Source: Atopobium sp. (lineage in GTDB: Bacteria > Actinomycetota > Coriobacteriia > Coriobacteriales > Atopobiaceae). From it: DNA of 64,000 bases. The stretch covers positions 6,620 to 70,619 of the forward strand of contig JAGZNE010000001.1 in assembly GCA_018363825.1 (NCBI GenBank), written 5' to 3'. The notes under the pieces were generated by a model. That model searched no databases and was not told where the DNA came from. It saw nothing but the letters and a program-made list of their open reading frames with translations. Of this stretch, positions 21,239-40,520 are shown piece after piece; position 1 is the first letter of the stretch, and the number at the start of each line of letters is the position of its first letter. Made by a program: the position numbers and the translations under genes.

Positions 21239-22684
21239 TTACAGTTCTTCTCCATTGGTTTTAATTACCTGTTGATACCAAGAGAAACTATCCTTCTTAA
21301 TGCGACGACCTGTTCCGTTTCCCAGGTCATCCTGATCAACATAGATGAAGCCGTACCTCTTGCTCATCTCCGAAGAAGAGCAGCTCACAATATCCAATGG
21401 CGCCCATGCATAATAGCCGCGCAAATCTACACCATCACTAAGTGCTTCAAGCATCTGTTCAACATGTGCTCTGAAATATTCAACGCGATACGGATCGTGG
21501 ATTGTTCCATCATCCTCAAGCTTGTCAAAAGCACCAATACCATTTTCTGTGATGTAAATTGGACACTGATAGCGGTCGTAGAAAACATTAAGGGTGTAAC
21601 GCAGTCCAAGAGGATCAATAGACCAGCCCCAAGGGTTTGCAGGAAGATTAGGATTAGAGAAATCTTTATTTCCATCCGCAAAGCTCTGAGCACTACAAAC
21701 GCTTGAATAGTAATACGAGAAACTCATGAAGTCTGCGGTATTTGTTAAATCTTCAAGGTCATTCTCACCAAATTGAATGTCAAAACCATTCTCTTCAAAG
21801 AAGCGCAAAGCATATCCTGGATACTGACCTCTGAGCAATACATCAGAGTAATAGAACTCCATCTGATTATGTCTGTAGCAGGCAAGAACGTCCTCAGGAT
21901 TACTTGACGATGGATAATCGGGTCCACCGCATAGCATCATGCCTATCTGGAGCTCGGGATAGTTTTCATGAGCATAACGAGTGGCGCGAGCACAAGCTAC
22001 CATCTCGTTGTGAACTCCTTGGTATTTAGCTTCTGCAAGGTTATCTACCTTATCAGCACAAATTCCAAGGTGGTTGAAAGACTCGACTGACACAAGATTA
22101 ATTTGGTTAATAAGAATCCACAGCTTAACTCGATCATGATAACGGTCAAATAAAACTTTGCAGTAGCGTTCAAAAAGATTAATCAGTTCGCGAGAAGCCC
22201 AACCCTTGTAGTTAAGCGTTAATGCAACTGGCATTTCATAATGAGAACAGGTAATCATAGGCTCCATGCCGTTAGCAATAACTGCATCAATAAGCCTGTC
22301 ATAAAAAGCTAACCCTTCTTCAGAAGGCTCAGCGTCATCCCCATTAGGAAAAATACGTGACCAATTAATTGAAGTTCGGAACGTCTTCAAACCAAGCTCT
22401 GCAAGAAGCTCTAAATCTTCCTCAAAGTTGTGATAGAAATCAATACCCCAACGTTTAGGAAAAATCCTATCAGTTGCTTCAAGGGCTGCGATAACTTTCT
22501 GAGTAGTCTCTTCTCCATTGTATTTCTCGTCAAGCGGAACATTTGACTTGTACTCGTTAAGATCACTTACGCAAGGACCCTTACCGCCTTCTTGCCAAGC
22601 ACCCTCCATCTGATTAGCCGCAAAAGCACCGCCCCAAAGAAAATCCTTTGGAAAACTATGCCTTACCTGAGGCTTTGCTCCCAT
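21239..22684 (-). CDS. bglA: GH1 family (6-phospho-)beta-glucosidase
   Basis: GH1 N-terminus FLWGGA..NQ.EGA and a C-terminal ITENG catalytic motif. Last gene of a PTS EIIB-EIIC-EIIA cluster; low GC. Confidence 0.9.
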
Positions 22685-23032
22685 TTAGCGCTCCTCCAAC
22701 TTCTTAATCCTGTCATCAAAGGACTTAAAAACTTGAACGAGCTGTTTAGCAGTAATGATTTCAGAATAAATAACCATAAGCGTGTCCTGGGCATGTGAGA
22801 ACAGAAGACTGTACTCCTGCTTTTCTCCCTGAAAGACACCTTGGATATGATCAGTCTGAACATGGTGAGCTTCAAGAATCTTTGCATCTGCGGCAGCAAT
22901 TTTTTCTTCTGCAAGCGCAATATCGCCAGCAGCAACAGCCTCATAAGCAAGCTTGCATTCATTGCGAGCCTCGCCAGCAGCAATAAGGATAGTCATGGCA
23001 TCCTGGGTAGTCTTATCAATTTCTTCTTCCAT
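22685..23032 (-). CDS. PTS lactose/cellobiose family EIIA component
   Basis: ~115-aa all-helical EIIA(Lac) protein with the conserved active-site His region (HHVQTDHIQ). Confidence 0.8.
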   Translation of the reverse strand: MEEEIDKTTQDAMTILIAAGEARNECKLAYEAVAAGDIALAEEKIAAADAKILEAHHVQTDHIQGVFQGEKQEYSLLFSHAQDTLMVIYSEIITAKQLVQVFKSFDDRIKKLEER

Positions 23033-23118
23033 AAGAAATTCTCCTCTAGACTCTAAACAGCGCATGAGATTACCTAAGACTACAAGTTGATATGTGGTCT
23101 TAGGCGCAGGTTATAGAT

Positions 23119-24435
23119 TTAGAACGACCAATCGTCATCTGAATCGGACTCAGTTTCTGCGGTCTCAGCATCAATAAGCTGCTTATCGTATGTTTTAAAG
23201 AATGGCATCCAAATAAGACCAGACACAACAAAAATGATAAGCATCAGAACAATACTGCCTATTGTTCCACAGGTAAGGAATGTGGCGATTGGGAATGGGC
23301 AATACCACATGTTAAAGAGCATCGAAGGAATAGCACCTAGTGGGATCACCTTAGTAAAGACGTAAGCAACAAGTGGTAAAACAATGCCCTGAAGCCACAT
23401 TGGAATCATCATGAGTGGATTCCACGCAACCACACCAAATACACAAGGCTCATTAATGTTAAAAATTGCAGGTACGAGGCAAGCACGACCAAGTGCTTTT
23501 AGCTGATTTGATTTAGCAGAGAATGCCATCAGAAGGACAAGAGATAACGTGCAGCCAATGCCACCAATCCAAAGATATCCAGAGTACACAAATGCATCGG
23601 TAAAGACTGCAAGATTTGATGCTGTTGCACTACCAGCGGCTGCTAGAACACCATTTGCCTCGGCGTTTGCAAGAAGGATTGGGGTAAATACTGGTGTTAA
23701 AACCCAGGAAGAAACGCCCATAGAATACAGGAAACAGAAAAGGAACATTGCAATTACAAGACCAACAGGTGAGTTAACAATATTCTGAAGAGGCATAAAG
23801 CAGCTAACAACCAGCTGATACAGGTTAAGGTTCAAAAACTTAGGATCGGTAAGAATCCAACCAAAAACTGTTACGATGCCAATTGGCAGCATTGAGTTAA
23901 ACCAGTCTTTTACAAAATCAGGAATTACAGAGTCTTCCTTAAAAAATGAGAAGTCTGCAAACTTATTTAGAACTGCTGCAGATATAAGACCAGCAACAAT
24001 TGCCAAAAACATTCCGCCAGCACCAAAGCCGCCAATATTAGAAATACGGAACCACGTAGATTCTCCTGCTGCAATCATGGCTGCTTGATCGGCCACAAAC
24101 TGTGGATTTAAAGAAATCAAAAACAAAATAACACCAGCAATACCCGCATTAACAGCCGAGCGCTTGTGTTCCTTAAGTATCAACAGATTGTAAGGAATCA
24201 AAAATGCAACAATCAGACCGACAATACCAAAGGTCCAACCGTAAGGTGTCCAGAAGTTTGGCCACCACTCAAAATAATTCATTGGAATTGTAAGCAAACT
24301 AAATATAGAACCTAAGAAGATAAGAGGAAGTGCCTGCAATACAGAATTCTTAATTGTAAGAATCCAAGGGTTCTGAACAATTCTGTTCATTTTTGGCGAG
24401 AAGCTCGTCTGAAGCCAGTCAATGAGCTTATTCAC
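23119..24435 (-). CDS. PTS lactose/cellobiose family EIIC permease
   Basis: 438-aa polytopic EIIC(Lac/Cel) with an acidic C-terminal tail. Confidence 0.85.
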   Translation of the reverse strand: MNKLIDWLQTSFSPKMNRIVQNPWILTIKNSVLQALPLIFLGSIFSLLTIPMNYFEWWPNFWTPYGWTFGIVGLIVAFLIPYNLLILKEHKRSAVNAGIAGVILFLISLNPQFVADQAAMIAAGESTWFRISNIGGFGAGGMFLAIVAGLISAAVLNKFADFSFFKEDSVIPDFVKDWFNSMLPIGIVTVFGWILTDPKFLNLNLYQLVVSCFMPLQNIVNSPVGLVIAMFLFCFLYSMGVSSWVLTPVFTPILLANAEANGVLAAAGSATASNLAVFTDAFVYSGYLWIGGIGCTLSLVLLMAFSAKSNQLKALGRACLVPAIFNINEPCVFGVVAWNPLMMIPMWLQGIVLPLVAYVFTKVIPLGAIPSMLFNMWYCPFPIATFLTCGTIGSIVLMLIIFVVSGLIWMPFFKTYDKQLIDAETAETESDSDDDWSF

Positions 24436-39570: not shown

Positions 39571-39636
39571 ATAACCTCTAGGTAAAATCAGGTCTAATTC
39601 GAGTTATCATTAGGTAAGCTATTTGTTCTAAATTTA

Positions 39637-40395
39637 CTAATAACCTATTACTTCACTCTCAACCTCATTAATAATTGCTTCTGGTATTTTATCAACTTCA
39701 ATACGATAAACCTTATTTAACCTTGGATTATAAAATCCTAGATACTTAAGATTATTAAATTCAAGGTGTATTGAATTTAAACCCATTCTCCAATACATAA
39801 GTAGCTGAAGTGTATGTTTTTTCTCAATTGAGCCTTTTAATACCTTAAAGTCCCAAATAGTATCTATCGTTGTAAAATCGCCGTCACCTGAATTAACAGT
39901 TTCGGTATAGCCACCCCTAAACGTAAATCCGTCCAAAACCTTTGGCCCATAAACATCAAAAAAATGAAGAGATCTATTTACCATTGTTCTTACATTTTCA
40001 ATTGTGGCGTTATCGGGTTCTATTTGCTCTACAGGTTTATAAGTAGAGAATCCTGCTCTACGACAAGTATCAAATCCTGTTAATTTCAATGCACTAACAA
40101 TGGAATTATCATCTAATCCCTTAACTTTTTTGAGAAGAGCATCTGCTTCCTTTTCTTTATCAATTAGACGAGCTCCCATTATCGAAATACGAAAAGCATT
40201 GTCAGGAGAAGCTCCTGTCATGAAATGTGTAAGGTATTCCACAGCAGTACCCACAAGATTGGGTTCAATATTTTCTTCTTTATTTAATTCTTCGATGCCG
40301 GATCCAAGAATTAGTTCATCAAAATCTTTAGGTTTAAGATATCCTCCTCTGGGCTGCTTTACTTGACCAACGCGCTGTGTTACAGAACATCCCAT
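39637..40395 (-). CDS. Hypothetical 252-aa protein with a possible PD-(D/E)xK motif (GDGDF-x7-DFK), immediately upstream of and probably co-transcribed with the MmeI-family gene
   Basis: agGAGGg RBS and ATG. No terminator in the 66-bp gap to the MmeI-like gene. AT-rich like the rest of the island. Confidence 0.5.
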   Translation of the reverse strand: MGCSVTQRVGQVKQPRGGYLKPKDFDELILGSGIEELNKEENIEPNLVGTAVEYLTHFMTGASPDNAFRISIMGARLIDKEKEADALLKKVKGLDDNSIVSALKLTGFDTCRRAGFSTYKPVEQIEPDNATIENVRTMVNRSLHFFDVYGPKVLDGFTFRGGYTETVNSGDGDFTTIDTIWDFKVLKGSIEKKHTLQLLMYWRMGLNSIHLEFNNLKYLGFYNPRLNKVYRIEVDKIPEAIINEVESEVIGY

Positions 40396-40520
40396 AATGA
40401 CCCTCCTAAACCTAAATTTTAATGATGCCCCACAATCTTACTGCGATCTTACCTGCAGTTATTAATCTTTACATACTTTTAGGTAAACGATTTATAATCA
40501 GCTCTCAAAGAACGTTTGCT

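Follow-up and report, generated by a model that had tools for sequence, protein, structure and literature searches.

A low-GC segment between pepF and an iron/siderophore ABC transporter gene in a Lancefieldella genome is probably the strain-specific content of a mosaic hotspot

We analyzed a 64,000-nucleotide stretch of DNA from an organism listed as Atopobium sp. (hereafter the window; contig JAGZNE010000001.1 of assembly GCA_018363825.1), with attention to a segment of about 19 kb, at positions 21206–40520, whose guanine-plus-cytosine (GC) content is 40.0% versus 52.2% for the remainder of the window. The segment lies between pepF (19296–21122) and the substrate-binding gene of an iron/siderophore ABC transporter (40602–41678, minus strand), and it carries two carbohydrate phosphotransferase system (PTS) gene sets, peptidase genes, and a restriction–modification (RM) gene. 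A preliminary description of this DNA had proposed that the segment was horizontally acquired as an island, with a gene set resembling those of Firmicutes and particularly Lactobacillales.

Sequence comparison places the host in the Lancefieldella (formerly Atopobium) parvula complex (Actinomycetota, Coriobacteriia, Atopobiaceae). This placement follows from PepF, which is 99% identical in protein sequence to its counterparts in eight or nine Atopobium/Lancefieldella genomes and metagenome-assembled genomes (MAGs) and 72% identical to that of Lancefieldella rimae. Note that the GTG start of the longest pepF ORF is probably wrong and that the real ATG is near 21092. Two complete L. parvula genomes share an average nucleotide identity of just 88.7% (PMC9600527), and the core genes of species-representative loci are 92–96% identical to those of the window. 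The comparisons described below employed a set of about 40 related contigs, given L numbers here, that were reached via pepF, exact-protein look-ups, and one metagenome scan.

The compositional shift is evident in a 1-kb GC profile, in which values are 0.36–0.45 over 21–41 kb, with the exception of 0.495 at 25–26 kb, and mostly 0.47–0.61 outside the segment. GC content at third codon positions (GC3) is 0.349 ± 0.084 for the 19 open reading frames (ORFs) inside and 0.561 ± 0.100 for the 37 outside (Mann–Whitney p = 6.7e-8). Dinucleotide signatures agree. The units designated below as cassettes A, D1, and D2 lie at distances of 78–89 × 10^-3 from the flanks; 4-kb chunks of the flanks themselves average 48 × 10^-3, and even the highest of them, at 72.5 × 10^-3, falls below these three cassettes. 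The exception within the segment is a gene at 25194–25985 that is core-like in composition (GC 0.51, GC3 0.60). The low-GC segment of the preliminary description, which had been offered with sliding-window GC as its check, is therefore real.

Both edges could be located to within a few nucleotides. On the left, blastn against L001–L011 and inspection of junction sequences revealed that homology to all relatives ends at 21205–21207, in the region upstream of pepF, where a conserved stretch (21093–21207, minus strand) with a shared motif at 21180–21207 serves as an anchor. The left boundary of 21239 given previously is the stop codon of the first gene of the segment, about 30 bp inside this junction. 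On the right, blastn homology picks up again at 40521–40526 in relatives without the right-hand cassettes (L003, L004, L092, L122, L123, L126, and L128), directly past the terminator hairpin of the ABC substrate-binding gene (40522–40560, minus strand), such that the sharp right edge originally drawn at this terminator proves exact by synteny.

Signs of mobility were sought in several ways. In NCBIfam and Pfam searches, none of the ORFs of 21.2–40.5 kb carries an integrase or transposase domain, and the same searches recovered no relaxase, type IV secretion system (T4SS), or phage structural gene from the segment. A repeat search across the segment yielded short chance matches only, with none at the edges, and the inspected junctions show no target-site duplication. 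There is no tRNA gene beside the segment. The sole one present, for tRNA-Met (44583–44659), is 4.06 kb past the right edge, and an Rfam scan of the window returned tRNA only. The earlier observation that integrase, edge tRNA, and direct repeats are lacking, with the closest tRNA about 4 kb away, is thus reproduced.

The segment can be divided into five units, the first of which is cassette A (21208–25111, minus strand; GC 0.41, GC3 0.34–0.39). As assigned by NCBIfam and Pfam, it comprises genes for a putative GH1 6-phospho-beta-glucosidase (21239–22684) and for Lac-family PTS components IIA (22685–23032/23065), IIC (23119–24435), and IIB (24518–24847), plus an upstream region. A second insertion subsite lies at about 24997|25112. 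The GH1 protein matches Pfam PF00232, and its top NCBIfam subfamily is PRK09852 at 504 bits (cut-off 623). Both this cassette and cassette D1 have a Lac-family set of separate IIA (PF02255), IIB (PF02302), and IIC (PF02378) proteins; by model TIGR00410 (cut-off 236 bits), the IIC of D1 passes at 248 bits and that of A falls below at 161. These assignments suggest that cassette A would most likely import and phosphorylate a beta-glucoside or cellobiose-type sugar and then cleave the phosphorylated product.

Two backbone units follow. Unit B (25112–26050, plus strand) holds the core-like gene at 25194–25985, which encodes a protein of 255–263 amino acids with weak similarity to MenH and other alpha/beta-hydrolases (NCBIfam E = 3e-7) and no match in a Pfam search. 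Backbone C (26051–28452, both strands; GC 0.36–0.45) contains four ORFs, identified by Pfam as far as they carry domains: a small HD-domain protein (26072–26527, plus strand), a small ORF (26581–26898, minus strand), a DUF3784 protein (27070–27390, plus strand), and a SLAC1/TehA-type anion channel (27499–28422, minus strand). The match of the 151-residue HD-domain protein covers just the first ~60–70 positions of HD_4, the RelA/SpoT HD hydrolase domain, and does not reach the Pfam cut-off. Protein identity among relatives is 92–94%, and the product might be either a small hydrolase of alarmones or a stable fragment. The SLAC1/TehA gene is present in two copies in the hotspots of some relatives (L004:1347–2270 and 3895–4830; L001 and L002 at ~2500–3500), and the window has one.

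Cassette D1 (28453–36706, minus strand; GC 0.38, GC3 0.25–0.36) is an eight-gene operon by NCBIfam and Pfam annotation. From the upstream end, its genes encode a regulator with HTH_11/Mga, PRD, and EIIA_2 domains (34685–36580); an M42 peptidase (33667–34695) whose best model is YpdE PRK09961 at 391 bits (equivalog cut-off 412); the Lac-family PTS components IIA (33310–33633), IIB (32923–33264), and IIC (31589–32917); an M24, YpdF-like peptidase (30422–31504) whose best model is YpdF PRK09795 at 230 bits (cut-off 393); a predicted MalY/PatB-type C–S lyase (29216–30421) scoring 331 bits with the PatB-subfamily model TIGR04350 (cut-off 340); and an RDD membrane protein (28577–29209). In the Protein Data Bank (PDB), the lyase matches Escherichia coli MalY best (5.6e-92), followed by PatB (1e-69), cystalysin (1.4e-55), and other cysteine-S-conjugate lyases. 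The domain combination of the regulator is the architecture of PTS-controlled activators, and D1 is probably a self-regulated operon whose PRD/EIIA activator responds to the state of phosphorylation of the Lac-family PTS. The M42 aminopeptidase, the M24 Xaa-Pro-type peptidase, and the C–S beta-lyase probably process the compound that is transported.

Cassette D2 (36707–40521, minus strand) is a predicted two-gene defense cassette. The larger gene (36772–39570, minus strand; likely start at Met10) encodes an MmeI-family type IIG RM enzyme, and its terminator hairpin, GAACGACTCTAGCG-TTTA-CCGCTAGAGTCGTTC-TTTT, lies at 36687–36723 (minus strand). The enzyme is a single polypeptide with all five MmeI Pfam domains above cut-off (PF20464, PF20465, PF20473, PF20466, and PF20467), which make up the N-terminal nuclease, helicase-like spacer, methyltransferase, target recognition, and C-terminal parts of the family, a PADLOC REase_MTase_IIG score of 1034 bits, and a full-length match to PDB entry 5hr4 (E = 3.7e-172). 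It retains D66-x10-E77-Q-K79 (PD-ExK), FDPACGSGNF at residues 385–394 (motif I of gamma-class methyltransferases), and NPPF at 510–513 (motif IV). MmeI-family enzymes are characterized by cleavage about 20/18 nucleotides from an asymmetric site and by m6A modification of one strand. By homology, the enzyme would place methyl groups on adenine within its recognition site and cleave unmodified DNA at a distance of about 20 bp. The other gene (39637–40395, minus strand) encodes a 252-amino acid protein that PADLOC assigns to PDC-S61 over its full length (E = 2.2e-113, residues 3–252 versus profile positions 2–250 of 253). The PDC-S61 family is a phage defense candidate reported in Streptococcus thermophilus (PMC11514479). 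The protein of the window gives a weak PD-(D/E)xK-type match and can be considered a candidate nuclease-like defense gene product; no solved-structure relative was found by sequence, and no relative was found in IMG/VR viral contigs. Domain searches across these cassettes therefore bear out the gene content first reported for the segment, namely GH1, two Lac-family IIA/IIB/IIC sets, M42 and M24 peptidases, and an MmeI enzyme.

The MmeI gene itself appears to be assembled from parts with different histories. Residues 1–365 are 93–99% identical to alleles from the same genus (including P0053 and P0009), versus 72–74% for the methyltransferase (MTase) domain and 34–39% for the target recognition domain (TRD), and GC content is 0.44–0.51 in the shuffled 3′ portion of the gene versus 0.38–0.42 in the 5′ portion. 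At the same site in L119 and L120 resides an MmeI allele in which only the MTase/TRD-coding part (36913–38027) is replaced, and we interpret this allele as a predicted specificity swap in situ. As judged from these alignments, domains have been shuffled within the genus, in the way that MmeI-family enzymes typically change specificity. Relatives with 74–75% overall identity to the enzyme are located in a second hotspot (described below), and one of these is annotated 'Atopobium sp.'.

The related contigs reveal that these units do not travel together. Cassette A is found in L007 and L090–L098 and is missing in L003 and L004; in these two contigs, a clean junction (21207|25103) connects the sequence upstream of pepF directly with B. 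Cassettes D1 and D2 are both missing in L003 and L092 (junction 28452|40521), which have a 22-nucleotide filler in place of D1. Five contigs (L105, L122, L123, L126, and L128) have D1 without D2, with a junction at 36709|40524, and D2 itself is found in L081, L082, L121, and L124. Backbone gene B is present at 89–91% nucleotide identity in L003, L004, L005, L007, L008, L092, and L093, and C is retained at 86–95% nucleotide identity in most relatives, including those without A or without D cassettes. These findings do not sustain the earlier proposal of a single island, since A is absent from two contigs, D1 and D2 are absent from two, D1 stands alone in five, and B and C are conserved.

The same positions are occupied by other genes in other strains. 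Subsite 24997|25112 is filled by genes for a Dam-type methylase and a 762–785-amino acid DndB/DpdB-like protein, with or without IS256, in L092, L095, and L007; position 26001|26902 is filled by a PARG-domain gene in L003 and L093; and position 28489|28511 is filled by a gene for a 392-amino acid protein in L122–L124 and L128. At the position of D2, there are SIR2-like, HerA, and HEPN/Toprim genes in L120, a DUF2326 protein gene in L119, and a type III RM system with an AAA_15 ATPase and an MmeI_TRD fragment in L127. Elsewhere in the hotspot, L004, which has SLAC1 in two copies, carries a Schlafen/AlbA_2 gene between these and B, as well as a separate insert of about 1 kb with a 186-amino acid ORF beside the ABC terminator. 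Next to pepF, the space in L001, L002, L006, and L011 is instead taken up by genes with core-like GC content that encode ABC exporters and an ECF-type transporter. The defense repertoire at the site thus comprises MmeI with PDC-S61, SIR2-HerA-HEPN/Toprim, DUF2326, type III RM, Dam with the DndB/DpdB-like protein, the PARG-like protein, and the Schlafen-like protein, and these predicted functions give the hotspot a strong defense-island character. The cassettes of other strains at the hotspot mostly resemble those of the window in composition, with GC contents of 0.32–0.43.

Two of these inserts merit further description. The Dam-type (D12) methyltransferase gene is followed by the DndB/DpdB-like gene (central domain) at L092:4095–7197, L095:206–3308, and L007:2885–5627, with an IS256 transposase adjoining the pair in L007; the two may form a methylation-linked defense pair. 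The PARG-domain gene (L003:5662–8885 and L093:1244–4452; GC3 0.25) encodes a protein of 943–947 amino acids whose N-terminal part is a microbial PARG catalytic domain and which also matches YeeR_C and, weakly, BnzA. The gene is followed by a 126-amino acid ORF and sits inside backbone C.

Several breakpoints involve terminator hairpins. As seen by comparing the window with L105 (L105:4840–4900), relatives lacking D2 retain just the 3′ half of the MmeI terminator (36687–36706), which is fused 4 nucleotides after the ABC terminator. The 1-kb insert of L004 (L004:250–1400) is bracketed by a 20-nucleotide sequence, TTTGTTTCCTGCTTGGTCTT, that duplicates the 3′ half of this ABC terminator. Together, the half-terminator scar and this duplication suggest hairpin-associated illegitimate recombination or deletion. 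An assembly chimera was also considered as the origin of the junctions and was rejected because separate contigs from several samples reproduce every one of them, among them L081, L082, L091, L094, and L096 from five different samples.

Sequence divergence provides information on the age of the cassettes. The window and L007 share 95.7% identity in cassette A and the same value in pepF. Likewise, D1 is 94.8% identical to its counterpart in L105, where the adjacent ABC operon is at 91.9% and C at 93.0%; D1 and D2 together are 96.3% identical to those of L121, and L120 has positions 23641–36913 at 95.1% identity. The divergence of A, D1, and D2 thus matches that of the core genes beside them, and the three cassettes keep both their site and their composition in lineages about 4–5% diverged. 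They have therefore occupied this position, already low in GC, from a time before the split of lineages about 4–8% apart, and they represent old polymorphisms rather than recent arrivals. Block by block, this is largely the situation that the preliminary description had named as a sign of ancestry, with related genomes carrying the same block at the same composition. The copy of A in L092 departs from this pattern. It is 99.1% identical to that of the window, versus 94.4% for pepF, 89.1% for B, and 92.9% for C, and this identity, set against far more diverged neighbors, is evidence for recent lateral exchange of A by recombination. The original suggestion of horizontal acquisition consequently holds in part: the DNA is accessory and atypical in composition, and cassette A has been exchanged laterally, but the segment was neither acquired as one unit nor acquired recently.

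The closest relatives outside the complex do not point to Lactobacillales. For A, the nearest is a colinear IIB-IIC-IIA-GH1(-HPr) cluster on a contig of 59% GC, with protein identities of 83% for GH1, 81% for IIC, 83% for IIB, and 76% for IIA. Next is a MAG contig of 52% GC (GH1 75%), and the GH1 proteins of named Bacillota (Streptococcus suis, S. merionis, Neobacillus, Heyndrickxia, and Dielma) are more distant at 66–71%. For D1, the regulator has five relatives among 5.8 billion proteins, of which three are from Lancefieldella, one is 52% identical, and one is 27% identical. The 52% relative belongs to the same eight-gene operon, in the same order, on contigs of 63–70% GC (L099–L104; for example L100:10001–18053). 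There, the operon has a GC content of 58–61% and is flanked by IS256 and IS21 transposases, and on one contig it adjoins prophage lysis genes. Its proteins are identical to those of D1 at 91% (IIC), 82% (IIA and IIB), 71% (lyase), 68% (M24), 64% (RDD), and 63% (M42). The IS256 transposase of these contigs matches plasmid sequences at ≤46% identity, and the endolysin gives weak, mixed matches at ≤38% identity, mostly to phages of Actinomycetota. The 52–70% GC hosts of the closest A and D1 homologs are probably Actinomycetota, and those of 59–70% GC are not Lactobacillales.

We conclude, with a probability of roughly 0.78, that the low-GC segment is the strain-specific content of a hypervariable hotspot that extends from pepF to the terminator of the iron/siderophore ABC gene and forms a mosaic in which at least five units, each with its own history, are combined (A, B, C, D1, and D2). 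Cassettes would be gained, lost, and swapped among Lancefieldella lineages without an integrase encoded by the element. The most likely routes would be homologous recombination via the conserved flanks and backbone after DNA uptake, which fits cassettes without a recombinase, junctions at the same nucleotides across lineages, and mosaic identity, and illegitimate recombination or deletion at terminator hairpins. The low GC content would then mark an AT-richer flexible gene pool of the lineage, not one recent import from Lactobacillales.

Several points weigh against this interpretation. The type-strain genome of L. parvula has a GC content of 45.7% (PMC3035223), and housekeeping genes just left of the window are at 50–59%, from which it follows that the contrast noticed initially is one of high-GC core genes versus low-GC flexible genes. 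The flanks, at 52% GC, may lie above the genome mean and exaggerate the local contrast, and low-GC stretches may be frequent and make up a large share of the genome. Composition and accessory status also match imperfectly, given that the hotspot content of L006 and L011 is at 0.49–0.61 GC and that gene B is core-like as well. In addition, flank recombination is read from patterns of mosaic identity. Finally, the synteny of the pepF region is not kept in L. rimae, and so there is no usable outgroup with which to polarize the empty and filled junctions.

The alternative that survives best, which we nevertheless consider unlikely, is that the whole segment is ancestral in the L. parvula complex and vertically inherited, with its low GC content due to a local bias in mutation or to weak selection where expression is poor and its patchy distribution due to lineage-specific deletions only. 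Several observations are as expected under this model: A, D1, and D2 keep a fixed site and have diverged in step with their flanks, the segment lacks mobility genes, and D2-less junctions retain half of the MmeI terminator, which resembles a deletion scar. Homologous cassettes in higher-GC hosts are furthermore near host-like GC, as if composition follows the resident genome. However, unrelated cassettes (defense systems, IS256, and ABC exporters) at the same junctions require gains besides losses, and the 99.1% identity of A in L092 beside neighbors at 89–94% requires recent lateral exchange. The dinucleotide signatures of A, D1, and D2 outside the flank range and the swapped MTase/TRD module of MmeI likewise argue against strictly vertical descent.

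Far less probable is the acquisition of one ~19-kb island through a single recent transfer from a low-GC Firmicute of the Lactobacillales. This proposal accounts for low GC and GC3 throughout and for the sharp edges, and Lac-family PTS, GH1, and RM genes are common in Lactobacillales. It can also draw on the named GH1 homologs, which at 66–71% identity are from Bacillota including the two Streptococcus species, and on the report of PDC-S61 in S. thermophilus (PMC11514479). The independent segregation of the sub-blocks in relatives largely refutes it, and the core-like composition of B, the retention of B and C in most relatives, and divergence of A, D1, and D2 between lineages that equals that of flanking core genes also count against it. 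The nearest outside relatives of the PTS cassettes on contigs of 59% and 63–70% GC argue against a source in Lactobacillales, as do the absence, among 5.8 billion proteins, of any relative of the D1 regulator above 52% identity other than those from Lancefieldella and the 93–99% identity of the N-terminal 365 residues of MmeI to same-genus alleles. Moreover, integrase and att sites were not found in the segment.

A decayed integrative element (a prophage, an integrative and conjugative element, or an integrative and mobilizable element) that has lost its integrase is scarcely credible, since the IS256-family transposase at the hotspot in L007 and the D1 homolog flanked by IS256 and IS21, once beside prophage lysis genes, must be set against a segment with no integrase, relaxase, T4SS, phage structural gene, or transposase, no flanking direct repeats or adjacent tRNA, no IMG/VR relative of PDC-S61, and cassettes that act as separate units.

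If the segment is, as we favor, the content of a mosaic hotspot, then its sharp 12-point GC drop with precise edges illustrates that such a signature need not mean one island or a recent import. The hotspot is instead a long-lived, multi-cassette recombination site. For Lancefieldella, an oral and gut commensal that has received little study and has been associated with halitosis and inflammatory disease, the analysis maps a hotspot of defense and carbohydrate uptake that might be used to mark strains and to look for new defense genes, and it records a series of MmeI alleles with swapped specificity domains.

The conserved PTS–peptidase–lyase operon D1 is the most interesting residue of this analysis. 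The window's IIC protein is 91% identical to that of L099–L104 despite a gap of about 20 GC points between the genes, and the preservation of the operon as a unit across hosts so far apart in GC content argues for selection on the whole gene set. As a long shot, D1 might represent an undescribed PTS-dependent route for a sugar-linked amino acid, peptide, or cysteine S-conjugate, in which the PTS would import the substrate, the two peptidases would trim it, and the C–S lyase would release a thiol or H2S. If true, this route would explain the long-puzzling pairing of PTS genes with M42, M24, and MalY-type genes (E. coli ypdEF, frvX, sgcX, and malXY), and it could bear on the production of sulfur volatiles by a halitosis-associated organism.

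Other low-GC or variable loci were encountered. A further low-GC patch begins near the right end of the window (62200–64000; ORF 63274–63975, GC3 0.26; see also 9413–9706). Beyond this right-end patch, L113:9666–13655 holds four tandem paralogous genes for proteins of about 315 amino acids each (GC3 0.36–0.45) with no Pfam match. The gap between the 50–59% GC of core genes, both in the window and over the 10 kb to its left, and the 45.7% of the type strain is consistent either with much low-GC flexible DNA or with a GC difference between lineages. A second defense hotspot, apparently of Atopobium/Lancefieldella, is present in L106–L110 (for example L110:3339–12998), between a 3-hydroxyacyl-CoA dehydrogenase gene and tsaD, and contains MmeI alleles, ThsB-TIR, McrBC, Abi_2, IS3-type transposases, and a Lac-family IIC gene.

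Comparison with known systems clarifies which features of the locus are familiar. With classical genomic islands, the segment shares atypical composition, accessory genes, and a patchy distribution at precise junctions, but not an integrase, a tRNA target, direct repeats, or movement as one unit. The gene set and order of cassette A are those of the cel/bgl-type Lac-PTS and GH1 operons of Gram-positive bacteria, IIB-IIC-IIA-GH1. The cassette has neither its own regulator nor an HPr gene, whereas the homologous clusters in L111 and L112 have HPr and the latter also has a PRD antiterminator. The D2 enzyme resembles MmeI (type IIG/IIL, PDB 5hr4) in its domains, nuclease motif, and MTase motifs I and IV, and differs in being paired with a PDC-S61 gene; its MTase, TRD, and C-terminal part are 34–84% identical to those of same-genus alleles, which would imply a different specificity.

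Cassette D1 has its closest known parallels in the cryptic PTS operons of E. coli that include peptidase or C–S lyase genes, namely malXY (EIICB and MalY), ypdDEFGH (YpdE M42 and YpdF M24), frvABXR, and sgcX (M42). To our knowledge, no substrate has been established for any of these. In D1, as in the E. coli systems, the enzymes are encoded with PTS components and a PTS-controlled regulator. However, the PTS of D1 belongs to the Lac/cellobiose family rather than the fructose or glucose families, and D1 joins all three enzymes and an RDD membrane protein in one operon.

The hotspots of the E. coli pan-genome offer a further example of variable regions flanked by core genes. The locus is also like defense islands and hotspots such as CR3 of S. 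thermophilus (PMC11514479) in its fixed site between conserved genes. As in such hotspots, the defense systems at the Lancefieldella site differ by strain, and the content is AT-rich and patchy. Unlike CR3-type islands, the Lancefieldella hotspot interleaves its defense cassettes with two carbohydrate PTS operons and a conserved backbone, its segment is without an integrase or satellite-type element, and several of its breakpoints lie in terminator hairpins. Overall, this is an ordinary flexible-genome and defense hotspot in a little-studied genus, and it fits within current understanding rather than overturning it.

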